A DNA stretch of 64,000 bases from an uncultured Clostridia bacterium (lineage in GTDB: Bacteria > Bacillota > Clostridia > TANB77 > CAG-508): assembly GCA_934133165.1 (NCBI GenBank), contig CAKPAW010000002.1, forward strand, positions 4,417 to 68,416, given 5' to 3'. Of this stretch, positions 2,649 through 23,477 are shown piece by piece. The notes beneath the pieces were generated by a model. The model ran no database searches. It was not told the DNA's origin and saw only the letters and a list, made by a program, of their open reading frames with translations. Numbering within the stretch: the first letter of the stretch is position 1; each line of letters begins with the position of its first letter. Both the position numbers and the translations under genes were made by a program.

Positions 2649-2654
2649 ATTAAA

Positions 2655-2712
2655 TTTTAGGGACAGGTCTCAAAATTTAAAAAATTAAATTTTTAAGCCC
2701 GTCCCTAAAATT
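2655..2712 (+). terminator. hairpin terminator after holA (tttagggacagg...cccgtccctaaaattt)
   Basis: inverted repeat 'tagggacagg'/'cccgtcccta' followed by T-rich run; shares the 'gggacag' core with the dispersed mini-repeat. Confidence 0.45.
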
Positions 2713-2764
2713 TACGAATAAAAAAACTCCTTTTTCAAATAATAAGAAAAAGGAGTGATTTTTT

Positions 2765-3700
2765 ATGTACAATTTTAGAACGGATTTAGCAGATGAGAGA
2801 AGAGATTTATATAGAAAAGCTAATAGTATAGAAAATGAAGTTAATGGTGTAGAAACTGAGGTAGAAGATGTAAATGAAAAAATAAAAGTAACAAGAGTAA
2901 AAATTACGAATGAAGAAGGAGAACAAGCAATAGGAAAACCAAAGGGAGATTACATCACTATAGATATAAAGAAAATCAATTTATTAACAGATGAGGAATT
3001 AGAGGAATCTTCAAAAATTTTAGCAGAAGAATTGAAAAAATTAATAGGTGAAAAAATTGAATTTAAAGATGATGTATTAATAGTCGGGTTAGGAAACGAA
3101 GAAGTAACACCAGATGCTTTAGGACCAAATGTGATAAAAAATGTAGAAGTAACAAGGCATATTATAAATTATTTACCACAATATATAGATGAAAATGCGA
3201 GACCTATAAGTGCTATTGCACCAGGAGTTTTAGGAACAACAGGAATAGAAACATTAGAAATAATAAAAGGAGTTGTAGAACATATTAAACCTAAACTTTT
3301 AATAGTAATAGATGCATTAGCATCAAGAAGTATGGAAAGAATAAGTTCTACAATTCAAATATCAAATACAGGAATAGTGCCAGGGGCAGGAGTAGGAAAC
3401 ACTAGAAAAGAAATATCAATAAATACTTTAGGAATTCCTGTAATAGCTATAGGAATTCCAACAGTTGTAGAAACAGCAGTCGTAGTAAATGATGCATTAA
3501 ATATTTTTATAGAAAAATTACAACAAGAAGCAAAATCAAACGACTATTTAAATGAATTAAAAGAAAAAGACAATTATGAGGAGATAAAAGAAGCGTTACT
3601 TCCAAAAGAATTTAATTTTATAGTAACACCAAAGGAAATAGATGAACTTGTATTAAGTATGTCAGAAGTAGTTGCAAAAGGAATAAATATGGCATTATAA
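2765..3700 (+). CDS. gpr: germination (spore) protease GPR
   Basis: 311 aa; 'MYNFRTDLADERRDLY' N-terminus and size match the GPR endopeptidase family; RBS 'aaaaggagtg' upstream. Confidence 0.8.
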   Translation: MYNFRTDLADERRDLYRKANSIENEVNGVETEVEDVNEKIKVTRVKITNEEGEQAIGKPKGDYITIDIKKINLLTDEELEESSKILAEELKKLIGEKIEFKDDVLIVGLGNEEVTPDALGPNVIKNVEVTRHIINYLPQYIDENARPISAIAPGVLGTTGIETLEIIKGVVEHIKPKLLIVIDALASRSMERISSTIQISNTGIVPGAGVGNTRKEISINTLGIPVIAIGIPTVVETAVVVNDALNIFIEKLQQEAKSNDYLNELKEKDNYEEIKEALLPKEFNFIVTPKEIDELVLSMSEVVAKGINMAL

Positions 3701-3737
3701 ACTATATAAAAAATCCAATATAAATTACTATATTGGA

Positions 3738-4421
3738 TTATAATGCAATATGCAAAAAATATAGAATTAGTAGGTGCAAAGGATAGAAAATATAAAAGAA
3801 ATATTTTGCCTTTGGACCTTCTTTTTTATTATAAAATAAAATAAAAATAAGAGATAACGCTGTAAAAATAGCACATTGTATGTAAATATACCATAAAACA
3901 GGAGTAGCAATTATATCAGGCACAAATCTTAAAAAACATAGAACAATGGTAGTAATTGCCATAGGTACTTTTTTATCTTTAAAAAAGTAAAAGCAAAACA
4001 TTAATAAAATACCAAAAGCACCATAATCTACATGTATAAAATAGGCTATAATACTTGTTAAAATAACAAATAAAAATCCTAATGCTTTGTTTTTACATTT
4101 ATCATAAACAAATAAAGCAAGCAAGCCTAAAAATAAAGTAAAAAATATATTAAGAGTAAGTATTTCTTCAGTAAATGTAGATAAAAAAAGCATAAAAGGG
4201 ATTTGAGAAATGCAAGCAAAAATAAATAATTTTAGCATATGCCTTTTAAAATCTTTAGTATAAATATATCCTTGAACAGCTTGAAAAGCAAAAATAGGGA
4301 AGGCAATTCTTCCAATTAAATTACAAAAAGAAAATTTGCCAATAATAGCATCTCCAACATGATCAAATAACATGGTTATAACACCAATAATTTTTAAAAT
4401 AAAACTTGTCATTAAATTCAC
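3738..4421 (-). CDS. TraX-family polytopic membrane protein
   Basis: 227 aa, multiple TM helices; 'ITMLFDHVGDAIIG...IGRIAFPIFAFQAVQG' resembles the TraX family. Confidence 0.45.
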   Translation of the reverse strand: MNLMTSFILKIIGVITMLFDHVGDAIIGKFSFCNLIGRIAFPIFAFQAVQGYIYTKDFKRHMLKLFIFACISQIPFMLFLSTFTEEILTLNIFFTLFLGLLALFVYDKCKNKALGFLFVILTSIIAYFIHVDYGAFGILLMFCFYFFKDKKVPMAITTIVLCFLRFVPDIIATPVLWYIYIQCAIFTALSLIFILFYNKKEGPKAKYFFYIFYPLHLLILYFLHIAL

Positions 4422-4539
4422 CCAAAAACATTATCTAATAAAACAAAATAAAAATCAAGTAAACAAAAAAATATCTTGCATAAAATAATTAATTGATATA
4501 CAATAATTACAGATTTTACAAACGAGGAGGAAGTTTTTT

Positions 4540-5853
4540 ATGTCTAACGTAAAATTAGAACTAAAATACACTAAAATAGATACAAAAGAAATAATGAAAT
4601 ACAAGGAAAAAGTTCAAGAAATACATCAAGAACTACAAGAAAATAAAAACAAAGAAGAGGAATTTTTAGGTTGGTTAGAACATCCAACTAAATATAATAA
4701 AAAAGAATTTGAAAAAATAAAAAAATGCGCTAAAAAAATTAGAGAAGATTCAGAAATATTAGTAGTAATAGGAATAGGTGGCTCTTATTTAGGAGCAAGA
4801 GCAGTAATAGAAAGTTTAACACATACTTTTTATAATTTACTACCAAAAGAAGAAAGAAAATCACCACAAATTTTATATGTAGGAAACAATATTAGTGGTA
4901 AATATCTTGAAGATTTAGTAGAATTGATAGGAAACAGAGATTTATCTGTAAATGTAATATCAAAATCTGGAACAACTACAGAACCAGCTATAGCATTTAG
5001 ATTTTTCCGTGAATTTATGGAAAATAAATATGGAATAAAAGAAGCAAGAAAAAGAATATATGTTACAACAGATAAAGAAAAAGGAGCATTAAAAACACTT
5101 GCAACTAAAGAAGGTTACGAAACATTTATTATTCCAAACAATGTAGGTGGAAGATATTCTGTACTAACACCAGTAGGACTTCTTCCAATCGCAACTGCAG
5201 GAATAGATATAGACAAGTTAATGAGTGGAGCAAGATTTGCTGAAGAAAAATATAACGACGAAAATTTAAAATATAATGATTGCTATAAGTATGCTGTTGC
5301 AAGAAATTTACTATATAAAAATGATAAAAATATAGAAATATTAGTAAGTTACAAACCAAATTTACATTATTTTATAGAATGGTGGAAGCAACTATTTGGA
5401 GAAAGTGAAGGAAAAGACGGAAAAGGAATTTATCCATCTGGAGCAGAGTTTACAACAGACCTACATTCGTTAGGACAATACATACAAGAGGGAAGAAAAA
5501 ATTTATTTGAAACAGTTATAAATGTTGAAAAAGAAGAATCTAACATAAAAATAAATGTGGATGAAGATAATTTAGATGAGATAAATTACTTAGCAGATAA
5601 GACGATGGACTACGTAAATAGAAAAGCAATGGAAGGAACAATAAATGCTCATGTAGAAGGAGATGTGCCAAACATTGTTATAAACATGGAAAAGATAGAT
5701 GAAGAGACAATAGGACACTTAGTTTATTTCTTTGAACTTGCTTGTGCAATGAGCGGAAAAATATTAGGAGTAAATCCATTTAATCAACCTGGAGTAGAAA
5801 AATATAAAACAAATATGTTTAAATTACTTGGAAAACCAGGATATAATAAATAA
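4540..5853 (+). CDS. pgi: glucose-6-phosphate isomerase
   Basis: 437 aa; '[12 protein letters not shown]' and '[19 protein letters not shown]' PGI signatures; RBS 'gaggagg'. Confidence 0.9.
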
Positions 5854-5862
5854 AAAATAAAA

Positions 5863-5900
5863 TAGGATACAGTGTTTTAGTTACTGTGTCCTATTTTTGA
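5863..5900 (+). terminator. rho-independent terminator after pgi
   Basis: 'ataggatacagtg ttttagtt actgtgtcctat' hairpin plus T-run. Confidence 0.6.
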
Positions 5901-6166
5901 AATGTTCCTTTTCGAGTCCAACATTTTAGTGTAAATAAAAAAATAGCTTTCGCTATTTTTTCTGGTGCCAACGAAGTAGTTATCTAGAACTTTTTCGGCT
6001 CTCATAACGATTGATACAAATATCAATCAATTCATTGTCTTTACTTTAACATAAAATTTATAAACTTTCAAGTAATTTTATAAAAATCTTTTATATTCAT
6101 TGATAAAACAATATATTTATGATAGTATTCATCTATATAAATAATAGAGAAAGAGAATAATTTAAA

Positions 6167-7387
6167 ATGGAACAAAATATAAAGAAAATAGAAAGAAGTA
6201 TAAAAATATACCCTATATTTGCATCATTTACAGGAGATTTGATATTTTTTGTACCAATAGATACATTGTTTTTGACATTAGTAAAAGGTCTAAATGCAAG
6301 TCAAATAACAGCAATGACAATGGTAGCTTTAATTGTATGCATATTATCACAAAAAGTAATATTATCTACTGTAAAAAAGATAGGTAATGTTAATTCTTTA
6401 AGATTAGGAACAATCTTATTGTTGATAGCAGCATTTATATTGACATTTGGAAAATCATTTATTTTAATGCTATTGTATAAAACTATTAATGAAATAGCCT
6501 TTATGTTTTTAAATATGGATGAAATTATATTAAAAAGCAACTTAAATGCTGTAAATAGAAAAGCCGATTATTATAAAATAAGAAATAAATCAAAAATAAT
6601 GTATTCAATTATAACATTGCTTACAGCATTAGTAGCTGGAAAATTATTTAATATAAATCGATATTTACCAATGTATTTATCTATTATTGTATATATCTTA
6701 TTACTTGGAATAGCATTTATGTATTATGAAGCTAAAAATGAAGAACAAAAAGAAATTAAATTAAATAATATGAAAATAAAAATAACATCAACTATATTTT
6801 TAGTAATAATATCAAATGCAGTATTTTATTCTATTATAAAAATGGGACAAAACAATAGTAAATTATTTATGCAGTATGACTTTCAGAAATATCTATCTAT
6901 TGAGATGGTAACATACTATATAACAACGATAGTATTTATTTCAAGAATTGCAAGACTTATTGGAAATATAATTTGGGGTAAAATATATTTAAAAATAAAA
7001 GATAAAATGAGTATAGCTCTAACAATTTGTTTATGTTTAGCATTTTTATTACTAATAATAGGACACTATATAAATGTACCATTTATATATAAAGTAATAA
7101 TAATGTCACTAGGATTCTTCTTAATATTAGCAATAAGAGATTCGTTCCAAATATATATTGAAGATGTAGCATTAAACATTACTAATAAAGAAGAACAGCA
7201 GAAAATTATAATAAATATAGAAGTATATAGAAGATTTGGAACACTAATATTAAGTGCAATTTTCACACTAATTTTAATGAAATATGAATTAATAGTAATA
7301 GAATTTATATTATTAGGATTAAGTATCATTGAAATATTTATCAATAAGAAATTATGCAAAAAGATTAAACAATCAGAACTAGCTTGA
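6167..7387 (+). CDS. polytopic membrane protein, MFS-like transporter candidate
   Basis: 406 aa, ~12 hydrophobic segments; no specific family recognised. Confidence 0.4.
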   Translation: MEQNIKKIERSIKIYPIFASFTGDLIFFVPIDTLFLTLVKGLNASQITAMTMVALIVCILSQKVILSTVKKIGNVNSLRLGTILLLIAAFILTFGKSFILMLLYKTINEIAFMFLNMDEIILKSNLNAVNRKADYYKIRNKSKIMYSIITLLTALVAGKLFNINRYLPMYLSIIVYILLLGIAFMYYEAKNEEQKEIKLNNMKIKITSTIFLVIISNAVFYSIIKMGQNNSKLFMQYDFQKYLSIEMVTYYITTIVFISRIARLIGNIIWGKIYLKIKDKMSIALTICLCLAFLLLIIGHYINVPFIYKVIIMSLGFFLILAIRDSFQIYIEDVALNITNKEEQQKIIINIEVYRRFGTLILSAIFTLILMKYELIVIEFILLGLSIIEIFINKKLCKKIKQSELA

Positions 7388-7554
7388 ATGATGTTTTCTC
7401 TTTTAAAGTAACGTTTTATCAAGAATTTTATAAATTGTATGGACAAAATTAAAATACTATTTTTTATAATATCCTTAATGTTATCTTTAACATTAAACGT
7501 TGCATTGATAGCAGTTCTTTATAAGAACTGGGTTGATAAGCAACTACATAAATA

Positions 7555-7598
7555 AAAAGCTCACATCTGTACTTTGCTAGGTAGATGTGAGTTTTCTC
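7555..7598. terminator. bidirectional hairpin terminator (ctcacatct / agatgtgag)
   Basis: perfect 9-bp stem flanked by A-run upstream and T-run downstream. Confidence 0.5.
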
Positions 7599-7855
7599 AA
7601 TATATGTAAGATTAGTTTTTTTAATGTTACCATTGATAAAAGTAGGGGTAACTTTAGCAAATTCACATATAAATTCAAGCTTTTGTTTGAGAGTTTCTTC
7701 AAATTGTAGTTCTTGCTTAATTATCTTCATTTACTTTCAACATCATTTCTTGGATGATTTTAATATTGTTTTTAGACAACAAAAAAATCAACCAGATTTA
7801 TTTTCTGATTGATTTTTGTATCCATCTGTTTTATTAGTTCGAACAGATACGTCAT

Positions 7856-7938
7856 TGGTGCTGATGGTGGGACTCGAACCCACATGGTTTCCCGCTGGAT
7901 TTTGAGTCCAGTGCGTCTGCCAGTTCCGCCACATCAGC
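7856..7938 (-). tRNA. tRNA-Leu (anticodon CAA)
   Basis: reverse complement folds as a cloverleaf: acceptor GCTGATG, anticodon loop CTCAAAA, long variable arm, TTCGAGT T-loop, encoded CCA. Confidence 0.85.
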
Positions 7939-8013
7939 ATATTAATATGAAGTAGATTAATTTGGCTCTACATACTGACGTTGTAACTCACATTTGTTCG
8001 AACAACCTCAGCA

Positions 8014-8040
8014 AGTTCCGCCACATCAGCATATTAATAT
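8014..8040 (-). repeat. duplicated fragment of the tRNA-Leu 5' end plus its upstream flank (27/27 identical to 7922-7948)
   Basis: 'agttccgccacatcagcatattaatat' occurs twice about 65 bp apart. Confidence 0.6.
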
Positions 8041-8199
8041 AAATAAATTTAAGCATATTCATATGATAACAGAAAAAAAAGAATTTATCAAGAAAAAATA
8101 ATAAAAAACATAAAAAATAATGACAGAGCAAAAAAATACGTGTATAATTAAGTAAATTTAAAGAAATATAATAAAAATAAAAAAGAGAGGGAAAATATA

Positions 8200-9297
8200 A
8201 TGATAAAAGATACAAAATATTATGCAAAAATATTAGCTAAAATTGCTATAGCAATATCAGCTTTAATAGGAATATTTTTAACATATAAGCTAGCAATATT
8301 TTATATACCATTTATTATCGCAATGATAATAGCAGCATGTATAGAACCACTAATAAAACTATTAATGAAATTCACAAAAATAAAAAGAAAACCTGCTAGT
8401 ATAATCTCACTTATTTTAGTTTTATTAATTATCGGAGGACTATTAACATTAGGAATAGCAAAAATAGTTTCAGAAGGTTCGGCACTACTTTCTAATTTAA
8501 ATACTTATTTTGATCATATATATAAATTGGGAACAGATTTTATAAATGAAATGAATGAAGGAAGATCAAATATACCACAAGAAGTAGTTGTAGTTATACA
8601 AAATTCACTTACAGGAATAATTGACGTTGTAAAAGGCTGGCTAGTAGGATTCCTAAAAGGTACACTTAATTTTGTAACATCAATACCAGATATGATTACA
8701 TACGGATTTATTACAATACTTGCAATTATATTTATATGTTTTGATAAGGAATACATACCAAATAAAATAAAAAGCCAAATACCAACAAAATGGTTTGAGA
8801 AAATTAGACAAATAATAAATGAAACATGTAGTGTATCTGTAAAATATATAAAAGCAGAAGCAAAATTATCTTTAATTTGCTTTATATGGGTATTAATAGG
8901 ACTAAACATAGTTAATCTTATAGGAATAAAAGTAGAATACTTATTTATTATGACAGTAGTTATAGGATTTGTGGATTTATTACCTATATTTGGTGCTGGT
9001 GCAGTAATGTTACCATGGACAGGATATTTATTAATAACAGGAAATATACCATTAGCAATAGCTGTAACAATAGTTTGGATTATTTGGGCTGTTATAAAAC
9101 AATTAATAGAACCTAAAATGGTAAGCAAAGAAATAGGAATACACCCAATATTTACTTTAATAGGAATGTATACAGGTTTTAAACTAATGGGAGTAATAGG
9201 AATGATATTAGGCCCAATTGTTTTGATAATATTGAAAAATGTATTTAGTGAATTAATTGAAAAAGGAATATTGAAAAGCTTTTTTGAGCTAGACTAA
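8200..9297 (+). CDS. ytvI: AI-2E family transporter (sporulation integral membrane protein YtvI-like)
   Basis: 365 aa polytopic; N-terminus 'YAKILAKIAIAISALIGIFLTYKLAIFYIPFIIAMIIA' typical of the YtvI/PerM family. Confidence 0.7.
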   Translation: MIKDTKYYAKILAKIAIAISALIGIFLTYKLAIFYIPFIIAMIIAACIEPLIKLLMKFTKIKRKPASIISLILVLLIIGGLLTLGIAKIVSEGSALLSNLNTYFDHIYKLGTDFINEMNEGRSNIPQEVVVVIQNSLTGIIDVVKGWLVGFLKGTLNFVTSIPDMITYGFITILAIIFICFDKEYIPNKIKSQIPTKWFEKIRQIINETCSVSVKYIKAEAKLSLICFIWVLIGLNIVNLIGIKVEYLFIMTVVIGFVDLLPIFGAGAVMLPWTGYLLITGNIPLAIAVTIVWIIWAVIKQLIEPKMVSKEIGIHPIFTLIGMYTGFKLMGVIGMILGPIVLIILKNVFSELIEKGILKSFFELD

Positions 9298-9375
9298 TAA
9301 AATATAAAAAGTACGAAAAAAATAAAAATAAATAGGGTATAATAAGTAAAAGAAAATGTAGAAAAAGGTGGAAAA

Positions 9376-10281
9376 ATGTTATATAGTTACGAAACAATAG
9401 ATATAAAACCAAAATTGAATAAGAAAAAAGTAATTTTATTGATATTAATAGTACTAACTATAATAGCTGTGTCTGTTTATGCTGGAATATATTTTTCTAA
9501 AAAAAATAAAGAAAATCAAATAGCAAAAGAACAAGAAGAAATAACTAGAATAAAAATTGAAGAAGAAAACAAAATAAAAGAGGAACAAAGAAAAGAACAA
9601 GAACGTCTAAAAAATTCTGTACCATTTACAGAAGAACAAATAGAGAAAATTGAAAATATATATCATCTTCCAGATGGAAAAAACGCATTTTTGACTTTTG
9701 ATGATGGACCAACACAAAGTGTTACACCGCTTATATTGGATTTGTTAAAACAAGAAAATATAAAAGCTACATTTTTTGTATTAGGAAATAGAGCAAAAGC
9801 AAATCCTGAATTAATAAAAAGAGAGTTTGATGAGGGTCATTATATAGCAAATCATGGATATTCCCACAAATATAGTGCAATTTATCAAAATACACAAACA
9901 GTATTAGATGAATATAATTATACAGAAAGTTGTATTCAAGAAGCATTAGAAAATCCAGATTATCATTCAAGATTATTTAGATTTCCTGGAGGTTCTGTTG
10001 GAGGCTATTATCATAGTATAAAGAAAGAGGCAATAGGCTCTTTAAAAGAGCAAGGAATTGCTTATTTAGACTGGAATAGCTTATCAAAAGACGCAGAAGG
10101 AGCAAAAACAAAAGAGGATTTATTTCAAAATGTGGTAGATACAGTAGGCGAAAAAAAGAATGTTGTTATACTAATGCATGATGCGGCAGACAAAATTTTA
10201 ACGTATGAAACACTGCCAGATGTCATACAATATTTAAGAGATAATGGATATCAATTTAAAACGATATATGATATCTTATAG
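9376..10281 (+). CDS. polysaccharide deacetylase (NodB-homology) family protein with N-terminal TM anchor
   Basis: 'AFLTFDDGP' NodB motif 1, 'HGYSHK', 'LMHD' motifs. Confidence 0.75.
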   Translation: MLYSYETIDIKPKLNKKKVILLILIVLTIIAVSVYAGIYFSKKNKENQIAKEQEEITRIKIEEENKIKEEQRKEQERLKNSVPFTEEQIEKIENIYHLPDGKNAFLTFDDGPTQSVTPLILDLLKQENIKATFFVLGNRAKANPELIKREFDEGHYIANHGYSHKYSAIYQNTQTVLDEYNYTESCIQEALENPDYHSRLFRFPGGSVGGYYHSIKKEAIGSLKEQGIAYLDWNSLSKDAEGAKTKEDLFQNVVDTVGEKKNVVILMHDAADKILTYETLPDVIQYLRDNGYQFKTIYDIL

Positions 10282-10290
10282 GAGGAAAAA

Positions 10291-11157
10291 ATGTTATATG
10301 ATGTAATTATAATAGGAAGCGGACCTGCAGGAATATCAGCAAGTTTATATACAAAAAGGGCAGGCTTAGAAACTCTTATTGTTTCAAAAGGAATTGGAAC
10401 GTTAAATAAGGTTGAAAAAATCGAAAACTATTATGGAACACCCAATATAAGTGGAAAAGCAATCCAAGAAATAGGAGAGAATCAAGCCAAGAACTTAAAT
10501 ATAGAAATAAAAAATGAAGAAGTAATGCAAATAGATTATGGCAAAAACTTTATTGTAAAAACATTAAATTACGAATATGAAGCTAAAACAATTATTATAG
10601 CAACGGGAAGTAATAGAAAAGTAGCAAATATAAAAGGAATAAAAGAATTTGAAGGAAAAGGAGTAAGTTATTGTACTACATGTGATGGATTCTTTTACAA
10701 AGATAAAGATGTTGCAGTATTAGGTAATAAAGAATATGCCATACATGAAGCACAAAATTTATTGCCTATAGCTAAATCTGTAACAATGTTAACAAATGGG
10801 GAACAACCCGTGGAAAAAAGAACAGAAGGTATAGAAATAGAAGAAAATAAAATACGAGAATTTAGAGGAACAAATAGTATAGAAGAAATAGAATTTGAAG
10901 ATAATACTAAAAAGAAGATAGATGGAGTGTTTGTTGCACTTGGAACAGCGTCAAGCAGTGATTTAGCAAGAAAATTAGGAGTTATATTAGATGAGAAAAA
11001 CAATATAAAGGTAGATAACAAAATGGAAACTAATATAAAAGGAGTATATGCTTGTGGAGACTGCACAGGCGGAATTCTTCAAATATCAAAAGCTGTATAT
11101 GAGGGAATGGTTGCAGGAATGTCTGCAATACAATTTATAAAGAATATAAAATCATAA
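10291..11157 (+). CDS. thioredoxin reductase-like flavoprotein (CTTC redox motif; lacks the canonical GGGxxA NADPH motif, possibly ferredoxin-dependent FFTR type)
   Basis: 'IIIGSGPAG' FAD motif, 'CTTCDGFF' redox-active disulfide; second Rossmann motif replaced by 'VAVLGNKEYA'. Confidence 0.65.
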   Translation: MLYDVIIIGSGPAGISASLYTKRAGLETLIVSKGIGTLNKVEKIENYYGTPNISGKAIQEIGENQAKNLNIEIKNEEVMQIDYGKNFIVKTLNYEYEAKTIIIATGSNRKVANIKGIKEFEGKGVSYCTTCDGFFYKDKDVAVLGNKEYAIHEAQNLLPIAKSVTMLTNGEQPVEKRTEGIEIEENKIREFRGTNSIEEIEFEDNTKKKIDGVFVALGTASSSDLARKLGVILDEKNNIKVDNKMETNIKGVYACGDCTGGILQISKAVYEGMVAGMSAIQFIKNIKS

Positions 11158-11241
11158 AAAACTTAACTTTATAAAAATCAAGGTTATAGGTCAAATCCTT
11201 ATTTAAAAACCTAAATAAATTATAAAAGGAATGAAATTGAT

Positions 11242-11544
11242 ATGGAAATAACAAGTGAAAATTTTGAAAAAGAGGTACTAAATTCAGATGTACCAGTGTT
11301 AGTAGATTTTTGGGCAAGTTGGTGTAATCCTTGTAAAATGATGGGACCAGTCGTAGAAGAAGTTGCAAAAGAATTAGAAGGGAAGATAAAAGTATTTAAG
11401 TTGAATGTAGACAATGAAAGAGATTTAGCAATAAAATATAATATTATGAGTATACCTGCATTTTTACTTTTTAAAAATGGAAAAGTAGAAAAACAAACAA
11501 TAGGAATGCAAAGCAAAGAAGAATTAATTAATTTTTTAGGATAG
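11242..11544 (+). CDS. trxA: thioredoxin (active site WCNPC)
   Basis: 100 aa, 'VDFWASWCNPCKMMGP' thioredoxin fold signature. Confidence 0.8.
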   Translation: MEITSENFEKEVLNSDVPVLVDFWASWCNPCKMMGPVVEEVAKELEGKIKVFKLNVDNERDLAIKYNIMSIPAFLLFKNGKVEKQTIGMQSKEELINFLG

Positions 11545-11652
11545 AAAAAAATAATATCAACCGAGAATATGACAACTTTTTAGAAAAAAGTTGTTGCATT
11601 GGCAATGGAATTTTGCCAAAAAAATAAAAAAATAAAAAATTTCAAAAAAGTG

Positions 11653-11681
11653 TTGACAAAAGATAAAAAAGTATGTATAAT
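11653..11681 (+). promoter_or_regulatory. sigma-A type promoter for tRNA-Gly (TTGACA-17-TATAAT)
   Basis: perfect -35 'ttgaca' and -10 'tataat' with 17-bp spacer, ~40 bp upstream of the tRNA. Confidence 0.6.
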
Positions 11682-11720
11682 AAAAATCGTTCGAGAGAGA
11701 ACAAAAATTATTATACATAT

Positions 11721-11794
<74 letters not shown>

Positions 11795-11855
11795 TTATTG
11801 CGAACCCATGTTGATATAAATTAATTTCAATATGGTGTTCTTTTTTAGTTAAAAA

Positions 11856-11890
11856 TACAGCCAGTAGTCACTTGACTACTGGCTGTATCT
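11856..11890 (-). terminator. hairpin terminator downstream of the radical SAM gene (minus strand)
   Basis: 'acagccagtagtca'/'tgactactggctgt' perfect 14-bp stem; T-run on minus strand. Confidence 0.5.
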
Positions 11891-11992
11891 GTGAGATTAA
11901 TTACCGCATATTGATCCTCCACCTTCACAAGCATTCATTCTCTGGTGTCTTACAAAAAATCTCAGCAACCTTTTTCTTATCATAATATAATC

Positions 11993-12850
11993 TCACCACC
12001 TTTCTGTCATAGATCCATCTTCCCAGATAACTCCAAACTTATTTTCAGGAAAAGTTTTAAATATTTTTATAAATGACTTTAAAACATCTTCCCAACTAAC
12101 AGAAATTGTTTCTTCAACAAGAAAGCATGACCTTTTTAAGATAATTGGTGTAGAAAATGTTTCTTCAGGAATATTAATTAATGTTTGACATCCATTAGCA
12201 TATGGACTAGGCATATGAATTCCCATAGCATCTTCAAATGAAACGAAGTACTTTGGAGAGTTTTGTAATTCTCGAAGGAGAATTGAACCAAAGCCCATCT
12301 CATCATAATGATGAATACATGTTAATATATCTTTTCTTGTTGATAAATAAGGTTTAACTAAATTTAAATTAATCCTAATTTTTTCCTTAAAAGGTAATGA
12401 ATTATAAAATTCTTGTCTGTCATATTGTGAATTATTGTGTCTGATACAATCAGCAATTTCTTCATTATAGTGGTGTGCTGATATATTTAAACCATCTACT
12501 AATTCTAGTAAATCAAAGAATGTTGATTTTTGTGCAAAGCACTTGTATGGAACAGAAGTTGTAACATATATCTTTAAATTTGTCAGTCTTTTTACTTGCT
12601 GTACACAATATAAGAGGTCTTCTAAATAAAGACACGGTTCTCCACCTAGAAAAAGAACATCTTCAAATCCATTTTGATGTTCGATAATTGTATTTATTAT
12701 TTTCCGAACATTTGGTGGATTTTTTCCTTTGCATCGATTAGCAAAATCAATACAAAAAGGACAAGCATAGTTACATTCTCCTGTAAAATGAATGTTCATG
12801 CTCTTGTGAATACCATCGCAGTGGTTACATTTTAATCTCATATTTTCCAT
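11993..12850 (-). CDS. radical SAM protein (CxxxCxxC cluster motif, viperin-like motif context)
   Basis: 'NIHFTGECNYACPFC' CX3CX2C motif, 'GGEP' glycine-rich SAM motif, extra N-terminal CxxC; 285 aa ending in Trp. Confidence 0.7.
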   Translation of the reverse strand: MENMRLKCNHCDGIHKSMNIHFTGECNYACPFCIDFANRCKGKNPPNVRKIINTIIEHQNGFEDVLFLGGEPCLYLEDLLYCVQQVKRLTNLKIYVTTSVPYKCFAQKSTFFDLLELVDGLNISAHHYNEEIADCIRHNNSQYDRQEFYNSLPFKEKIRINLNLVKPYLSTRKDILTCIHHYDEMGFGSILLRELQNSPKYFVSFEDAMGIHMPSPYANGCQTLINIPEETFSTPIILKRSCFLVEETISVSWEDVLKSFIKIFKTFPENKFGVIWEDGSMTERW

Positions 12851-13202
12851 CCTTTCAATGTGTAATATTATTGGTATACCAATTTGCTTTTGGAATTATA
12901 AATTAAAATAATATATAAATTATAACATGGTTACATAATATTGTCAACTATTATCATTTCTTTAATTTAATTGACTTTTAATTTATTATTTTTTATTGAT
13001 AAAATATAAATCTTATGTTAAAGTATAAACAATAAATCGAGTTATATAAGATAGATTGAAACAAAGTATGCATTTTTTCGCATACCTGTTTCGTAATCGC
13101 TACATAAAAAGCCGAATAGTTCGACTTTTTTATTTATGGAAATCATTGAAAAAACAAAGCAATATTGATATACTATTAACAAATATTTTAAGAGGTGAAA
13201 AC

Positions 13203-14003
13203 ATGGATATAGAAAAAATAAAAGAATTTTTAATGCAAGAACATATATTAGTTGTGATATTAACAATAGTTATAGCAGTAATAATATTAAAAATAAAAGA
13301 CAAAATCTTTAATAAAGCAATAAAAAAGATAGAAGCAAATAAGAAAATGCATACTAAAAAAGAAATAACATACATAAAACTAACAAAAAATATAATCAAC
13401 TATTTAATAATAATAGTTGCAATTTTATTTATATTACAACTATTTGGAGTTAATGTGAGTTCAATTATAGCAGGATTAGGAGTAGCCTCTGTAATAGCAG
13501 GTTTAGCACTTCAAGATGCATTAAAAGACATAATAATGGGATTTAATATAATAGTAGACAACTATTATTCAGTGGGAGATGTTATAAAAATAGGAGACTT
13601 TGAAGGAAAGGTAATTGAATTAGGAGTAAAAACAACAAAATTACAAGATGTTAATAATGAAAATGTATTAATTATTGCAAACAGAAACATTGGTCAGGCA
13701 CTAAAATCATCAGATGAATTGATAATAGATGTACCAGCTCCATATGAAGAGAAAACAGAGAAAATTGAAAAGATTATTGATGTAATTGTTAATAAAATAA
13801 AAGAAAATGAGAATGTAAAAAAAGTTAAATATGTAGGAATAAATCAATTTGCAGATTCAGCAGTAAATTACAGAATAATTATATGGTGTTCTCCAGAAGT
13901 AAGATTACCAGTAAAAAGATATGCCTTAAGAATGGTAAAAGTAACATTAGATGAAAATAATATTACAATACCATACACTCAAATAGATATACATCAAAAA
14001 TAA
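13203..14003 (+). CDS. small-conductance mechanosensitive channel (MscS family)
   Basis: TM helices followed by MscS beta-domain-like 'GDVIKIGDFEGKVIELGVKTTKLQD...VLIIANRNIG'; RBS 'agaggtg'; longer ORF-track start at 13056 lacks RBS. Confidence 0.7.
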   Translation: MDIEKIKEFLMQEHILVVILTIVIAVIILKIKDKIFNKAIKKIEANKKMHTKKEITYIKLTKNIINYLIIIVAILFILQLFGVNVSSIIAGLGVASVIAGLALQDALKDIIMGFNIIVDNYYSVGDVIKIGDFEGKVIELGVKTTKLQDVNNENVLIIANRNIGQALKSSDELIIDVPAPYEEKTEKIEKIIDVIVNKIKENENVKKVKYVGINQFADSAVNYRIIIWCSPEVRLPVKRYALRMVKVTLDENNITIPYTQIDIHQK

Positions 14004-14067
14004 ATATACTATACTACTTCTGTTCAAGAAGTATAAAGGATTAGAAAAATAAAGTAGGAGAATAAGT

Positions 14068-14604
14068 ATGAAAATATATATAGTAAGACACGGGCAAACG
14101 AATTGCAATAAAGAAAATAAATATAATTGTAGATATGATGAAAATATAAATGAAATTGGAATAAAACAAGCTGAAAATATAAGAGGAAAAATTAAGGAAT
14201 TGAATATAGATTTAATTATATGTTCACCAATGAAAAGAACAAAGCATACATGTAAAATAATAAATGCAAACAATATTCCAGTAATTTATGATGATATACT
14301 TATCGAAAGAGATGGGGGAATATTGACTAATACAATTATTGATGATTATTATTTTAAAGAGTATTATAACTATTATTCAAAAAACATTGTTGAAGGTTTA
14401 GAAACATTGCCAGATTTATTTAAAAGGACTCATTCGTTTTTAAATGAGATAAAAGAAAAATATTATAATAAAAATATTTTACTGGTTACTCATGGAGCAG
14501 TAGCAAGGGCTATGCAATTTTATTTTGAAAAAATGCCAGAAGATGGAATGTTACTAAATGTGAGTGGTCAAAAAAATTGTGAAATAAAGGAGTATGAATT
14601 GTGA
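14068..14604 (+). CDS. histidine phosphatase family protein (phosphoglycerate mutase-like)
   Basis: 'IYIVRHGQTNCN' RHG catalytic motif; 178 aa. Confidence 0.7.
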   Translation: MKIYIVRHGQTNCNKENKYNCRYDENINEIGIKQAENIRGKIKELNIDLIICSPMKRTKHTCKIINANNIPVIYDDILIERDGGILTNTIIDDYYFKEYYNYYSKNIVEGLETLPDLFKRTHSFLNEIKEKYYNKNILLVTHGAVARAMQFYFEKMPEDGMLLNVSGQKNCEIKEYEL

Positions 14605-14875
14605 AATTAACAAGTGAAGAAGCAAAAAAATATTAGAAGAGGAAAGAAAAAAGACAAAAGATGATAGATGGATAGATCACTCAATATCTGTTGGAAATAG
14701 CGCTGGAAGAATTGCTAAAGCATTAGAAGAAAAAGGACATAAAGTAGATGTTGATAAAACAATAACTTTAGGTTATGTGCACGATATAGGAAAATATAAT
14801 GGAGAATCACAAGGGCATGTTATAAGAGGATATAATTTGTATGATTTATTTCCAGAAATAAAAGAAAATTTATAA
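14601..14875 (+). pseudogene. HD-domain protein, frameshifted in an A7 homopolymer (14623-14629)
   Basis: GTG start overlaps the upstream stop; frame 0 gives 'VKLTSEEAKKY*', -1 frame continues 'ILEEERKKTKDDRWIDHSISVGNSAGRIAKAL...GYVHDIGK' (H...HD motifs); one extra A restores a single ORF. Confidence 0.45.
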
Positions 14876-15010
14876 ATAAAATATTAAAAAAGAAAATTAC
14901 CAAAATATCACTGATTATTTGGTAATTTTTCTTTTAATTAAATACCAATTATACTATACTTTAAATAGAAATGATAAATATATCATTATAAGAAAAAGGA
15001 AGGTGATGTT

Positions 15011-15733
15011 ATGGCATTAATAAAATGTCCAGAATGTAACAATCAAATAAGTGACCAAGCAGATAGTTGCCCTAAATGTGGTTATGAATTAAAAAAGAAA
15101 GCAAAAGAGCCAGAGAACAAAGAAGAAAGTAAATCATTTATAAAAAAGGGTAATTTAAAATATTTAATAATAGTATTAGTAATAGCAGTAGGAGCATTTT
15201 TATTTTTCCAACAACCTAATAATAATACAGGAACGGGTACTGGTACTGGAACAGAACAACCAACTACTCCATCAACAAATACTGGATATTCAGTATATAC
15301 TGATGCTTATCTTGGAATATCTTTTGAAATACCAAGTAACTATAAAGTAACTACAGATAAAGAAGGATACATATATGTAGGTCAAAACATAGATAGCAAA
15401 GGAGCATTAATTCCATATATAATTATTGGTAGATATGATAATTTCAATAATGGAGTACAATTTTTAAACAATTTTACAGACTACATGAGAAAGCAATATA
15501 GTGACCTTAAAATTATAATTGATTTAATTTCTGGAGTTATTGGAAATAGAACAGTATATGGACTTGCGTATAGTTATAATGTAGATAATCATTTAATAAT
15601 AGATAACAGATATGCAGTTGTTATAAATAATAAAGTATATATGGTAGGATCTAAAGAAGAAAATACAAATACAACTGAAATTAATAATGTAGTAGAACAT
15701 ATTTTATCTACTTTAACAGAAAGGGGTGCATAA
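15011..15733 (+). CDS. zinc-ribbon domain membrane protein (N-terminal CPxC...CPKC ribbon, one TM helix, extracytoplasmic domain)
   Basis: 'CPECNNQISDQADSCPKCG', hydrophobic helix 'LIIVLVIAVGAFLFF', then a TGTGTGTGT linker. Confidence 0.55.
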   Translation: MALIKCPECNNQISDQADSCPKCGYELKKKAKEPENKEESKSFIKKGNLKYLIIVLVIAVGAFLFFQQPNNNTGTGTGTGTEQPTTPSTNTGYSVYTDAYLGISFEIPSNYKVTTDKEGYIYVGQNIDSKGALIPYIIIGRYDNFNNGVQFLNNFTDYMRKQYSDLKIIIDLISGVIGNRTVYGLAYSYNVDNHLIIDNRYAVVINNKVYMVGSKEENTNTTEINNVVEHILSTLTERGA

Positions 15734-15734
15734 T

Positions 15735-16925
15735 ATGGCATTAATTAAATGTAGTGAATGTGGAGAAAGTATATCATCAAGTGCTAAAATATGCCCACAT
15801 TGTGGTGTAAAAATTAATTTACAAACATGCCCTGAATGTGGTGCGAAATTAAAAGGTGATGAAACTAATTGCCCTGAATGTGGTTATCCAATTAATAAAA
15901 AGAATGCTACAAATATAATAACTGAAAATTTAGACAAAATAACAGGTGCTAAATCAGAAAGCTATGTAAAATTTAAAGATTTATTTAAAAATACTTTCAA
16001 AAAACATACAGAAGAGGAACTAGATGAAGTATTTGTTTGTGGTTCAGACAAAACAACTCCAAAAGTAGAAGATATAAATCCAAAACAAGCAAGTGCATGG
16101 GTATACTTTAAAATATTATTATTTTTCTTAATTGCATATATTCCAACACGTATAGGATTTATAACTTATGGAAATTCAAACTTTTTACCAATTATGATTA
16201 TGTTAGCAGCATTTGCAGTACCAGTAACAATACTTATATTTTTCTTTGAAATTAACTTGTTTAGAAATATACCATTTTATAAAGTAATAAAATATTTCAT
16301 ATTGGGTGGTTCATTATCATTAATTTTAGCAATTTTATATTTCTCATTACAATACTTTGAGACAAATGCTACAACTCAGACTTTCACGGGAGCTTTGATG
16401 ATTGGGTTAATTGAAGAAGCTGCTAAAGCAGTCATAGTTGCAATTTTCTTATTTAAAAGTAAAAAAAGCCAATATATACTAAATGGTTTATTAGTAGGTG
16501 CAGCAGTTGGAGCAGGATTTGCAGCTTTTGAAACAGCAGGATACATTTTAAGATATGGAATGAGTGGTGGTGTACAAACAATGCTAGAAATTATTAAACT
16601 ACGTGGATTTTTAGCACCAGGTGGACACGTTGCTTGGGCAGCAATTGAAGGAGCAGCATTAATGTATGTTAAGGGTTTTGATAAATTAGATAAAAAACAT
16701 ATAAATGATAAAAGATTTTTATTAATTTGTTTAATACCAGTAGTACTACATGGAATTTGGGATATGCCTATTGAACTTCCATATTATTTAGTACAAATTG
16801 CAATGACTATTATTGCTTGGATTGTAATAATATATTTCATAAATCTAGGATTAAAACAAATTGATGAAGCTAAAAAGTTAGAATTGGCTAAAAAAGTAGA
16901 GGAAGATAAAAATGTTATTTTGTAA
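15735..16925 (+). CDS. PrsW-family intramembrane metalloprotease with two N-terminal zinc ribbons
   Basis: 'CSECG...CPHCG' and 'CPECG...CPECG' ribbons; PrsW motifs 'EEAAK', 'FAAFE', 'GGHVAWAAIEG'; RBS 'aaagggg' placed for the ATG at 15735. Confidence 0.6.
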   Translation: MALIKCSECGESISSSAKICPHCGVKINLQTCPECGAKLKGDETNCPECGYPINKKNATNIITENLDKITGAKSESYVKFKDLFKNTFKKHTEEELDEVFVCGSDKTTPKVEDINPKQASAWVYFKILLFFLIAYIPTRIGFITYGNSNFLPIMIMLAAFAVPVTILIFFFEINLFRNIPFYKVIKYFILGGSLSLILAILYFSLQYFETNATTQTFTGALMIGLIEEAAKAVIVAIFLFKSKKSQYILNGLLVGAAVGAGFAAFETAGYILRYGMSGGVQTMLEIIKLRGFLAPGGHVAWAAIEGAALMYVKGFDKLDKKHINDKRFLLICLIPVVLHGIWDMPIELPYYLVQIAMTIIAWIVIIYFINLGLKQIDEAKKLELAKKVEEDKNVIL

Positions 16926-19209: not shown

Positions 19210-20418
19210 ATGAAGAGATTATTAAAAATTAGTTTTGATTTATCTTTATTATCTTTTATACCAATAATTTCATGGTTTTTATTAGGTATATTAGTTGATA
19301 AAAATTTAATTAATATTTTTACTTTAACTTATCCAATACAATTTATATATTATATTTTAAAATCAGTATTCTCTACTGGTGCTAATATTTGTAAGGAAAA
19401 AGATAAAAATAAAAATGCTGTAATGTCAGGTATGGTTATGGGAACTATCGTTTCGGTTATTATTTTTTCTATACTTTTAATTAATGTAGATAATTATATA
19501 AATTTTATGAATATGGATATTAATACATATAAAGTATTTACTATATATTCCATATTACAATTGTTTATTTGTTTAGAATTTGCAATGATGTTAAATAAAT
19601 TATATTATGAAGAAAACAATACAATAGCAAATAAATATTCCTTAATATTTAATTTATTAAATTTTGGATTATTAATTGGTACATCTTTAATAACCAAAAA
19701 TCAAATTGCTATAATTACTACAACACTAATTCCATTGGCATTATTTACTTTATACATTTATATAAAAAATAGCAATAAATTTAAATTACAATTAAATGTT
19801 TTAAAATGTATTAAATATGATTCAGTAGAATTGTTTAATAATATTGCGTTTTTCTTGATTTTTTTATTTGGTTTAAGTAATGCTCTAGAATATGGTGAAC
19901 AATTTGCAATTGCGCTTACATTTGTGGCTCTTATAACCGATACGCAATGGGATACTGCTGATGCAATAGTTACTGCAGCAACAATTGATATAAGTAAAAA
20001 CGAATTCAACTATAAATATCATAGGAATAATGCTTATAAATTATTAAGTTTATTATTTATAACTAGTTTAATTATGTTTGTTTGTTTATATGGTTTTTAT
20101 GATTTAAATTTTAAAATTACAATGATTTATTTTGGATTTGAAATTATAAATTTCATAATTTATCCTATATACAGAATTAAAACTTGTTATTTACAGTTAG
20201 AATGGTCTGCATTTAAAACAACATCTAATAAAATATGTGCTTCTATTTTAAGAATGATGATGTCTTTATTAAAAACACCATTTTGTACAGGTATAGGACA
20301 AGTATGCTCATCAATATATCAATTTATTTCTGTAAGCATATTTTTTAAATTAAATTATAATGTAGATAAAACAGGAAAAGTAACATCCAAAAAAATCATT
20401 AGTAAAGACAATGCTTAA
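19210..20418 (+). CDS. polytopic membrane protein (flippase/MOP-like?); last 12 nt plus stop lie inside repeat R1
   Basis: 402 aa, ~10-12 TM segments; ends 'KDNA*' exactly like the ABC transporter at 25299. Confidence 0.4.
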   Translation: MKRLLKISFDLSLLSFIPIISWFLLGILVDKNLINIFTLTYPIQFIYYILKSVFSTGANICKEKDKNKNAVMSGMVMGTIVSVIIFSILLINVDNYINFMNMDINTYKVFTIYSILQLFICLEFAMMLNKLYYEENNTIANKYSLIFNLLNFGLLIGTSLITKNQIAIITTTLIPLALFTLYIYIKNSNKFKLQLNVLKCIKYDSVELFNNIAFFLIFLFGLSNALEYGEQFAIALTFVALITDTQWDTADAIVTAATIDISKNEFNYKYHRNNAYKLLSLLFITSLIMFVCLYGFYDLNFKITMIYFGFEIINFIIYPIYRIKTCYLQLEWSAFKTTSNKICASILRMMMSLLKTPFCTGIGQVCSSIYQFISVSIFFKLNYNVDKTGKVTSKKIISKDNA

Positions 20419-20872
20419 TTGGCATTGTCTTTATCATTTTCAATAGGCATATATTTTTTTATGTACTATTTTGTATCTTTAAATATTCAATTTTATTTCC
20501 AATTGCTCTTTCATCTTCAAAATATCCAAGATAGTGAAATCTATTTTTTACTTTAATTAAGCATTCAATATTTTCTTCTAGTGCTTTGGCAATATTCTCT
20601 ATAATATATTCTTCTTTTTTAGATTTTGATTCTTCTTTAAATTTTGGAATTTTAATCTCATATCCTACAATTAAATTTCTAATATATTCAGATTGTGATA
20701 TGTTTAAGTTGGAAGAATTATTTTTTAAAACAAATTTTTCATCATCACTTAAAAATACATTAACTTTATTATTTCTTATTCTCATAAATTTCAAAGCTCC
20801 TTTTTTAAATATTAAGGGTATGGGAATTCCCATAATAGAATTTGTATGGGAGTACAAATTCAGTGCTGGCTA
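20404..20872. repeat. direct repeat R1 (~470 bp; copy of 25285-25757) carrying a MobC-like gene and palindromes
   Basis: starts with 11-bp-stem hairpin AAAGACAATGC-TTAATTG-GCATTGTCTTT; contains 16-bp palindrome TATGGGAATTCCCATA (20819-20834) and hairpin GAATTTGTA(T/C)GGGAGTACAAATTC (20838-20861). Confidence 0.75.
20459..20785 (-). CDS. MobC-family ribbon-helix-helix protein (mobilisation accessory protein-like), copy 1
   Basis: 'MRIRNNKVNVFLSDDEKFVLK...LNISQSEYIRNLIVG' matches the MobC pattern (vRlt.eE...S.SeylR); true start likely MRIRNN (ORF-track start at 20857 reads through the upstream palindrome). Confidence 0.6.
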   Translation of the reverse strand: MRIRNNKVNVFLSDDEKFVLKNNSSNLNISQSEYIRNLIVGYEIKIPKFKEESKSKKEEYIIENIAKALEENIECLIKVKNRFHYLGYFEDERAIGNKIEYLKIQNST

Positions 20873-20878
20873 TACATA

Positions 20879-20902
20879 ATATGTGAGTATGTACTCACAT
20901 AT
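20879..20902. terminator. perfect palindrome ATATGTGAGTA-TG-TACTCACATAT overlapping the tnpV-like stop
   Basis: 11-bp arms; unique to R1 flank. Confidence 0.5.
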
Positions 20903-21257
20903 TTTCATTATAAATTAACTCTTTTAATATAATTTCTTCTGCTATATTTTTATAATTATTCATAAGTTTTGCCCACTCAATAGGGTTATTATCTTTATTT
21001 TTTTCAGTCAGTTTTTCATCACTTTTTATATAATTATGCATTAGAGTATTTAATAAATCTTCCGAATTTTTACTTACTGAAATAAGATAATTAGTAAGTT
21101 CTTCTTTCATTAAAAGTGAAGTATATAGTGCTTTTTTATACTCCTTTAAATATGCTAGTCTCGTTCTTCCATATTTGTTTATATTTCCTTTTTTAGTTTC
21201 TTTTAAAGTTAAATCTGGTAATAAATAATCTCCATGTTTTGTATAAGTTATTTCCAT
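20895..21257 (-). CDS. TnpV-family transposon protein (as in Tn4451-like elements)
   Basis: 120 aa; 'GDYLLPDLTL...YGRTRLAYLKEYKKALYTSLL...WAKLMNN...AEEIILKELIY' matches the TnpV pattern; directly downstream of the serine recombinase. Confidence 0.55.
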   Translation of the reverse strand: MEITYTKHGDYLLPDLTLKETKKGNINKYGRTRLAYLKEYKKALYTSLLMKEELTNYLISVSKNSEDLLNTLMHNYIKSDEKLTEKNKDNNPIEWAKLMNNYKNIAEEIILKELIYNENM

Positions 21258-21284
21258 AATTAAATCATTCCTTTCTTATTTTTA

Positions 21285-23069: not shown

Positions 23070-23156
23070 AGTTTTCCTCCTTTCATTAAATTTCGAGAAA
23101 TATTAAAATACCTCTCATATGTTTCCTCACAAATAGGCAAAATGTATAGTCTAAAA

Positions 23157-23435
23157 TTAAAATTTTTTCAAAAATTGTGTAATTTCTTTAATATTATACT
23201 TTTGATTATGCTCTTTAATATAAAAAGTCTTATTTGATATTTCATTAACTTTGTATTCAAGTATTGTAAGAGTAGTAGGATATGTAATTTGGTATTCAGT
23301 AGGTATTACTACTTGTAGATTGGTGTGCAATATAGTTTTAATCTGTCCTAATATAACCTTATATTTAAAGTTTTTTAAGATGTTGGTTAAATCTTTATTA
23401 GGTTTTAGATTTTCAATTACTTTAAATTCAAGCAT
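23157..23435 (-). CDS. hypothetical protein (92 aa) upstream of the recombinase
   Basis: ORF only; no family recognised. Confidence 0.3.
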   Translation of the reverse strand: MLEFKVIENLKPNKDLTNILKNFKYKVILGQIKTILHTNLQVVIPTEYQITYPTTLTILEYKVNEISNKTFYIKEHNQKYNIKEITQFLKKF

Positions 23436-23477
23436 GAAAAAAGTCCTCTTTTCTGTGATAAGAGAACTTTTAAAGTT

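Follow-up and report, generated by a model that had tools for sequence, protein, structure and literature searches.

A radical SAM enzyme paired with a tiny cysteine peptide: a probable minimal peptide-maturation cassette carried mainly by phages

Much new chemistry, and many bioactive molecules, come from peptides modified by radical S-adenosylmethionine (SAM) enzymes. The sactipeptide and ranthipeptide maturases (CteB, AlbA, PapB, and the SCIFF maturase) are proteins of about 450 residues that carry a seven-cysteine SPASM motif and an N-terminal recognition element (RRE) for peptides that ribosomes make and that are modified after translation (RiPPs). Their genes adjoin that of a short precursor with conserved cysteines. 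In CteB, the substrate cysteine binds the open iron of an auxiliary cluster. MoaA (GTP 3',8-cyclase) also has an auxiliary [4Fe-4S] cluster in its C-terminal part, held by three Cys so that one iron stays open. Here we describe a smaller enzyme-peptide pair in a 64,000-nucleotide stretch of DNA from an uncultured Clostridia bacterium (contig CAKPAW010000002.1; hereafter, the window): a radical SAM enzyme gene (11993 to 12850, minus strand) and, directly after it, a gene for a 28-residue peptide. An earlier note on this DNA described the enzyme as stand-alone and possibly a prokaryotic viperin (pVip). We think it probable instead that the pair forms a minimal RiPP-type cassette, whose enzyme modifies the co-encoded peptide after translation.

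As read from the sequence, two minus-strand genes make up a self-contained cassette, in the order promoter, enzyme gene, tiny peptide gene, and terminator. A predicted sigma-70-type promoter (12919 to 12947), TTGACA-17-TGnTATAAT, is called from its 12/12 consensus match only; it lies about 70 nucleotides upstream of the enzyme start codon, and its −10 element carries a TG extension. The enzyme is listed with 285 residues. Its true start is probably the ATG at 12841 (Met4), which gives 282 residues, because the Shine-Dalgarno sequence GAAAGGA (12850 to 12856) lies 8 nucleotides upstream of it and a homologue 98% identical to the window enzyme, P0001, is 282 residues long. The peptide open reading frame (ORF), MIRKRLLRFFVRHQRMNACEGGGSICGN (11897 to 11983), starts 10 nucleotides past the enzyme stop codon on the same strand, and its Shine-Dalgarno-like sequence, AGGTGGTGA (11993 to 12001), is made of the enzyme's last codons. 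It was recognized through a small-ORF scan, comparison with the close relative L076, and pairing across the family. RNA folding and sequence then place an intrinsic terminator at 11846 to 11890: a 17-bp hairpin (about 11853 to 11890; −27.8 kcal/mol, z-score −8.6, with 0 of 200 shuffles folding equally well) followed by a U-run. Contrary to the earlier note, the enzyme gene is thus neither monocistronic nor stand-alone; the conserved 28-codon ORF shares a single promoter-terminator unit with it.

Comparison with relatives indicates that the peptide ORF is coding, because codon differences among close relatives are synonymous in 28 cases and non-synonymous in 14, and because the closest comparison agrees. 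The peptide of L076, a 98%-identical relative, is MIRKRLLRFFVRHQRMNACDGGGSICGND; it differs from the window version by two synonymous changes, one E-to-D replacement, and one codon inserted in frame. Relatives at 69% and 66% identity have GHC, NHC, or SHC versions of the peptide with the leader unchanged. The window peptide itself consists of a basic leader, MIRKRLLRFFVR, and a two-Cys core that lacks both His residues (NAC...SIC) and has two residues after the last Cys. (An alternative downstream ORF, MVRLYYDKKKVAEIFCKTPENECL, at offset −7, was rejected: the L076 differences are non-synonymous in its frame, and it bears no likeness to the family leader.)

The pairing holds throughout the family. 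About 75 related loci were compared. All-against-all clustering of 1,630 flanking ORFs found no enriched neighbour protein, and when 150 proteins encoded directly beside the enzyme gene in 49 lineages were scanned with Pfam, no family had more than two occurrences; ORFs of fewer than 50 codons were therefore examined. Pairing was counted on 73 enzyme genes, and required a small same-strand ORF that starts −60 to +110 nucleotides from the enzyme stop and encodes at least two Cys and an HC or CH motif in its tail. Such an ORF follows 64 of the 73 enzyme genes, versus 17 of 896 other genes (1.9%) in the same loci, and the apparent exceptions are gene-calling artefacts or fusions. In the small-ORF scan the peptide ORF often overlaps the end of the enzyme gene. 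The family's C-terminal (K/E)-G-W codons (AAA/GAA GGN TGG) double as the peptide's Shine-Dalgarno-like sequence (window 11993 to 12001; L001 to L071), and conservation of the terminal Trp may in part reflect translational coupling rather than enzyme function.

The 52 distinct peptides have a conserved leader and a hypervariable core. The leader is basic and amphipathic, with consensus M-Y/F/W-T-K-L-L-R-K-I-V. In the alignment the only invariant positions are two Cys; the core holds two Cys in 43 peptides and four in 5, mostly 4 to 16 residues apart. Many cores have an acidic residue after the first Cys (C-D or C-E). In one example, MYTKILRKLVRMSRQMAGHCDGDGGSGGHTGHCY, a basic leader precedes a core that bears two GHC motifs; the peptide of a clade at 38% identity is MKKLITKLARAISRSRGCHEIETGCH. 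In 44 of 52 peptides the last Cys is the penultimate residue; the final residue varies among Y, S, G, D, N, F, E, H, and K. Because it is nearly always penultimate whatever the final residue, the pattern suggests that the free C-terminus may be part of what the enzyme recognizes, as may the acidic residue after the first Cys. Carboxylate-directed chemistry is reported for PapB (PMC12373016), and the penultimate Cys and acidic residue could, by analogy, point to chemistry of that kind, though this is only a lead. A peptide profile search of a big protein database found 145 clusters, all unnamed or 'hypothetical', one labelled Caudoviricetes.

Other members carry the motif within larger proteins. 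A tail with CH or HC motifs is fused after the enzyme's C-terminal GW in at least nine 50%-cluster representatives (P0265, P0247, P0245, P0172, P0125, P0227, P0229, P0246, and P0255) and in a Patescibacteria locus, L073; these tails have 16 to 62 residues and two or three motifs. Borosin methyltransferases such as OphMA also carry their own core peptide at the enzyme C-terminus. The likeness ends there: enzyme class and chemistry are wholly different, and the split two-gene form is the commonest in the present family. In the Lak megaphages, whose enzymes are about 35% identical to the window protein, the downstream ORF encodes 160 to 170 residues ending in ...GGC-x10-12-GGC. These Lak partner ORFs (L013 6880 to 7400; L078; L079) are read with code 15 and bear two terminal GGC motifs in place of a 30-residue peptide; the Lak-A2 ORF is apparently frameshifted relative to that of Lak-C1.

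The enzyme belongs to the radical SAM superfamily (PF04055, 34.0 bits against a gathering threshold of 29.5). It has the features that the earlier note listed: a CX3CX2C motif, in NIHFTGECNYACPFC; GGEP; a length of about 285 residues; an N-terminal CNHC; and a terminal Trp. The cluster cysteines C26, C30, and C33 and the GGEP at 69 to 72 are invariant in the family. Homologues number 782 at E up to 1e-3 in a set of 5.8 billion proteins, and a profile search gave 900 cluster representatives, 250 of these at E up to 1e-10. For residue conservation, 98 diverse members (22 to 47% identity to the window protein) were compared. At least 80% conserve N9, C11, T23, the cluster cysteines, GGEP, L74, T98, S124, L164, G186, E194, G220-C221, C242, G279, and W285. 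Three extra cysteines, C11, C221, and C242, are kept in 96 to 98 of the 98. The CNHC pair, which to the earlier note suggested an added zinc-binding element, is present in the window, but only its C11 is kept family-wide (96/98); position 8 is Cys in just 18 of 98.

At the core of the AlphaFold2 model of the window enzyme (pLDDT 90.1) is a partial TIM barrel like that of radical SAM structures. Viperin leads the Foldseek matches; nearly as good are MoaA, BlsE, and the peptide-modifying auxiliary-cluster enzymes CteB (5why/5wgg), SuiB, and EpeE. Among viral folds in BFVD no close structure was found (TM at most 0.61). The barrel is lined by conserved basic residues (21, 145, 157, 159, 166, 239, 240, and 258). 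The C-terminal 90 residues (about 196 to 285) gave a profile without any PDB or Pfam match, and by this comparison the domain is novel. It gave no SPASM or Fer4 match in Pfam, and its only conserved cysteines are C221 and C242, to which the N-terminal C11 may be added. The model predicts the order C221, beta 222 to 225, beta 236 to 239, C242, and helix 253 to 263, a twitch-like hairpin. The region thus modelled is similar to twitch domains, which bind an auxiliary [4Fe-4S] cluster, and is a putative site for one. (A second radical SAM sequence accompanies two members. P0170, a cluster representative of 695 residues, has an N-terminal extension of about 390 residues with a second, divergent radical SAM domain at 125 to 283, including its own CxxxCxxC, and is a possible two-enzyme fusion. 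In L063, a second radical SAM ORF at 26 to 892, cut by the contig end, lies directly upstream of the cassette.)

These features suggest a mechanism. The basic amphipathic leader would dock on the enzyme, probably on the novel C-terminal domain. The N-terminal CX3CX2C [4Fe-4S] cluster would cleave SAM to give the 5'-deoxyadenosyl radical. A second metal site formed by C11, C221, and C242 would hold a core Cys thiolate. Probably this is a [4Fe-4S] cluster in which, as in MoaA and CteB, one iron is left open, because three Cys ligands alone would be available. Abstraction of hydrogen from a nearby carbon, followed by formation of a C-S bond, would then yield a thioether-type crosslink, one for each Cys and hence two in the window peptide.

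Several observations weigh against peptide maturation. Neither a PqqD-like RRE nor a SPASM motif was detected in the enzyme, which has just 15 residues before beta1, and peptide recognition would therefore need a new mode. The basic residues of the barrel would also fit a phosphorylated (nucleotide) substrate. The window peptide has lost its His residues and shifted its last Cys, so the common motif is not strictly required. NCBIfam models gave no match to the peptides at E up to 10, and the lack of a peptide-family match leaves analogy as the only guide. Finally, the peptide could be a partner of the enzyme rather than its substrate.

Comparison with described maturases bears on the same question. 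The gene-pair arrangement of sactipeptide and ranthipeptide systems is found here: pairing is far above the controls, the leader is conserved while the Cys core varies, and fusions occur. Foldseek ranks CteB second (E 1.8e-8), PapB models match 13 of the 69 members in the family alignment (A2), and the family has a candidate for an auxiliary cluster with an open site. In contrast, the family enzyme is far shorter than the maturases and has neither of their accessory modules. Unlike in sactisynthases, its extra cysteines are split, with C11 at the N-terminus and C221 and C242 in the novel C-terminal domain. Moreover, the cassette lacks the protease, ABC exporter, and immunity genes of those systems, and is mostly phage-borne.

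Two further enzymes resemble the family in sequence. HxsC, a radical SAM maturase of similar size, modifies a protein with short repeated His-containing motifs (PMC13128918). Its NCBIfam model is matched by 62 of the 69 members, ahead of prokaryotic viperin (60), MoaA (51), and TatD-linked radical SAM (47). The window protein scores 20.5 bits against an HxsC cut-off of 267.9, over the N-terminal cluster region only (residues 19 to 89), and HxsA, HxsB, and HxsD neighbours are absent from the window and the related loci. The HXS motif is HxS and the system a proteobacterial defence; the motif of the present family is Cys-based (GHC or CH), and its carriers are mostly phages. MoaA is a remote homologue (E. 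coli MoaA, hhalign probability 97.2%, E 3e-11, columns 17 to 195), with a Foldseek TM score of 0.60 over about 306 columns. The Cys pattern and C-terminal domain sequence differ from those of MoaA, the C-terminal region being unalignable; the window protein reaches at most 27.6 bits with MoaA models, where the cut-off is 231, and no moa genes accompany it (its neighbours include thioredoxin and MscS).

The family is carried mostly by phages. Full-length homologues at about 35% identity were found by tblastn in 15 of 15 Lak megaphage genomes, and not in other GenBank phages or any plasmid. A profile scan of IMG/VR gave 49 viral loci, many on contigs of 100 to 285 kb. The metagenomic contigs with close homologues also look like phage genomes: they carry unidirectional small ORFs, and among the genes flanking or near the cassette are those for TerL, minor capsid protein, gp25, Mu F, Rha, ANT, DUF551, T4 Y07B, AcrVA2-like, Thg1, and primase-helicase proteins. 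Carriers range from phages of about 50 kb to Lak megaphages of 540 kb. In 185,579 prokaryotic species, each represented by one genome, a profile scan detected 11 loci only, all in metagenome-assembled genomes (MAGs); a single-sequence scan of that set found no match. Members of the window's own clade (59 to 69% identity: L003, L063, L064, and L075) occupy ordinary chromosomal contexts that are different each time: aspartokinase/Rho, Tex/ABC-F, alcohol dehydrogenase, and Asp/Glu racemase. The closest genome-derived relative, L063, is from a Clostridia MAG (65% identity).

This distribution suggests that phages use peptides modified after translation during infection, an almost unexplored area of phage biology. 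The site of action is probably the interior of the infected cell, unless the product is set free at lysis, because no protease, exporter, or immunity gene accompanies the pair in the related loci and because carriage is mostly by phages. Candidate roles would be host takeover, counter-defence, metal handling, and inter-phage competition. The chromosomal copy in the low-GC window bacterium would have arrived by lateral exchange and would be driven by a strong predicted promoter of its own. A fuller proposal, offered tentatively, is that this is a new ribosomal peptide class and primarily a phage invention: a minimal 285-residue maturase, with a new C-terminal domain for peptide binding and an auxiliary cluster, would crosslink or otherwise transform a two-Cys 'GHC...GHC-x' core into a product that large phages use intracellularly, and the window copy would be a bacterial acquisition.

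A radical SAM enzyme with a Cys-containing precursor is a known kind of system. What looks new is the architecture without RRE or SPASM, the split Cys triad, the C-terminal domain, the recurrent fusions of enzyme and core, and the distribution mainly in phages and megaphages. Full-text literature searches found no description of the enzyme-peptide family; NCBIfam, Pfam, and PHROG hold no model for the enzyme's C-terminal domain or the peptide. A search of PHROGs gave generic radical SAM matches only, and the names found in databases are confined to 'radical SAM protein', 'organic radical activating enzyme', and 'hypothetical protein'. Discovery pipelines depend on SPASM and RRE signatures; lacking both, the family has escaped notice. 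With two small genes, the cassette is directly testable.

Three other explanations have to be weighed. The strongest rival, unlikely in our judgement, is that the peptide is a partner or cofactor-bearing subunit that, for instance, binds a metal or Fe-S cluster through its His-Cys motifs or delivers electrons or sulfur, while the true substrate is a nucleotide above all, or else a host protein or nucleic acid. Metals are typically bound by His-Cys motifs, and fusion to the enzyme C-terminus is as much to be expected of a subunit as of a substrate. The basic residues of the barrel, together with kinship to MoaA and to viperin, which uses nucleoside triphosphates (NTPs), would suit a phosphorylated substrate; the missing RRE, protease, and exporter also favour this explanation. 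Yet the combination of a conserved leader with a hypervariable core, in which motif number (two or four), spacing (4 to 16), and final residue all vary, is the hallmark of a RiPP precursor and not of a structural subunit. The window peptide does without His ligands altogether, and the Lak motif stands at the end of a 170-residue protein.

Next, and improbable, comes a peptide-derived small molecule. The cassette would make, for example, a metallophore or a redox cofactor, as mycofactocin (MftA/MftC) and pyrroloquinoline quinone (PqqA/PqqE) are made, the C-terminal Cys-X being processed and then excised by host peptidases. MftA ends in Val-Tyr, and the position of the reactive motif at the extreme C-terminus of the peptides, with the last Cys so often penultimate, recalls it. 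A minimal cassette without an exporter would suit such a product, and PqqE models weakly match 12 of the 69 members. However, no MftB- or PqqD-like chaperone, peptidase, or tailoring gene is conserved nearby, the final residue varies as it seldom does in cofactor precursors, and versions with four motifs or 170 residues exist.

The viperin question turns on a real but partial resemblance. Viperin (RSAD2; models NF038283 and TIGR04278; structures 5VSL, 6Q2P, and 9DFW) is the nearest solved family, with a shared core (beta-alpha)6 fold. In sequence searches of the PDB, viperins come first (E 4e-7 with the single sequence, 6e-9 with the profile), followed by lysine 2,3-aminomutase (5e-3). Alignment of the 69 family members with 25 viperins (A3) by hhalign gave 98.7% probability over columns 16 to 189 only, and the best Foldseek match is viperin 5vsl (E 3.8e-9), with TM 0.54 to 0.60 over a core of about 215 residues only. 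Both have a (N/D)-hydrophobic-(H/R/K)-F-T-x-x-C sequence before the cluster, an 'x-N' residue on beta5, similar length, and a terminal Trp. Viperin models are also the top matches in NCBIfam and PADLOC. Nevertheless, the window protein scores 39.8 bits against a cut-off of 180 (NF038283) and 32.5 against 450 (TIGR04278), 4 to 14 times too low and over the N-terminal part only; the PADLOC pVip model gives 41 bits over residues 18 to 182.

The cluster motif fares similarly. The viperin signature is N-hydrophobic-H-x4-C-x3-C-x2-C-F around the cluster. The window has N-I-H (followed by F-T) and then C-I-D, whereas the family has D (56) or N (15), V or I, and R (44), K (18), or H (16), and I-(E/D) rather than F-H after the third Cys. 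The likeness that the earlier note saw is genuine, but its 'NIH' is peculiar to the window protein, and homology of comparable strength extends to MoaA.

Residue roles in viperin were taken from alignment A3 and a published study (bioRxiv 10.1101/2023.09.13.557418), which places the beta8 nucleobase loop in the Lys319/Cys314 region. FCFHT, invariant in A3, has no conserved counterpart in the family by HMMER or hhalign; nor have the K/N of KINF, SCDSF, IGRG, RWKxFQ, and SYLILDE. Where positions align, KINF corresponds to D64/L66, SCDSF to S124-x-Q-H, IGRG to an unconserved stretch, and KFKLN to R159/N161/N163. Thus, of the aligned NTP-binding positions, just the serine and the final asparagine (N163) are kept. 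The viperin C-terminal extension (RWKxFQ, SYLILDE, and the beta8 loop) is absent, as are the Lys/Arg motifs that bind triphosphate: alignment stops at column 189, and the C-terminal 90 residues are unmatched and unrelated to those of viperin.

The family also has three additional invariant Cys, an obligate Cys-peptide partner, and fusions that have no place in viperin biology, and it is found mainly in phages rather than in defence islands. The viperin-like cluster motif and the weak pVip match are insufficient to call a defence gene. It is very improbable, and the least likely of the three rivals, that the enzyme is a pVip that converts CTP, UTP, or GTP into 3'-deoxy-3',4'-didehydro nucleotides, which terminate phage RNA chains in anti-phage defence: the sub-threshold scores, the unmatched motifs and C-terminal domain, and the phage carriage all stand against it, HxsC and MoaA models match members about as often, and the homology is of the same order as that to MoaA. 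Gene context and residue comparison point to a peptide-modifying enzyme that lacks the viperin substrate residues. The family is a distinct branch in the neighbourhood of viperin, MoaA, and the peptide maturases. In this respect the fallback of the earlier note, an uncharacterised radical SAM family, was correct, and no profile now available claims this family.

The surroundings of the cassette are those of a bacterial chromosome (about 26% G+C), which carries genes for DnaE, HolA, trigger factor, and PGI in the window. Directly around it lie housekeeping genes, for thioredoxin, thioredoxin reductase, MscS, and a histidine phosphatase, and not a defence island. The adjacent tRNA gene that the earlier note reported is there: tRNA-Gly(tcc), 11721 to 11794, plus strand. 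The hairpin at 11853 to 11890 lies between this gene and the cassette, which converge on it, and may terminate transcription in both directions.

Elsewhere in the window, a second tRNA-Gly(tcc) gene (25894 to 25967, minus strand) accompanies signs of nested mobile DNA at 20404 to 25974. A 58-nucleotide direct repeat (23477 to 23534 and 25842 to 25899, 98% identical) abuts this tRNA gene; a second direct repeat of about 475 nucleotides (20404 to 20878 and 25285 to 25762) is 87% identical. The region also has a gene for a large serine recombinase (21285 to 23069, minus strand) and one for an ABC transporter (23698 to 25299). The radical SAM cassette is outside these repeats. The idea that the two tRNA-Gly genes bracket an element bearing the cassette was dropped, since their complementarity is just 77% and the elements that the repeats define lie elsewhere.

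One phage lineage and one phage-like contig have distinctive genes beside the cassette. In one (L009 to L012, about 8976 to 16588), the cassette lies just upstream of GGACT, Peptidase_C26, COOH-NH2 ligase, Amidoligase_2, and GATase_6/7 genes, then a primase-helicase; the run reads as a peptide-ligation or gamma-glutamyl-type module. In the other (L004/L005, 149 kb, at 1759 to 13959), it is accompanied by genes for ThiF-like, reverse transcriptase, AcrVA2-like, and IS605 OrfB/Cas12f-like TnpB proteins, with a Thg1-like gene directly after it. Functional links to the amidoligase/GATase/GGACT cluster, and to the Thg1, reverse transcriptase, and AcrVA2-like genes of L004, were considered and dropped as lineage-specific.

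Finally, the window contains, at 15011 to 16925, an adjacent gene pair with near-identical zinc-ribbon N-termini (MALIKCPECN... and MALIKCSECG...; repeat D10), in which the second gene is fused to a PrsW-family intramembrane protease domain.

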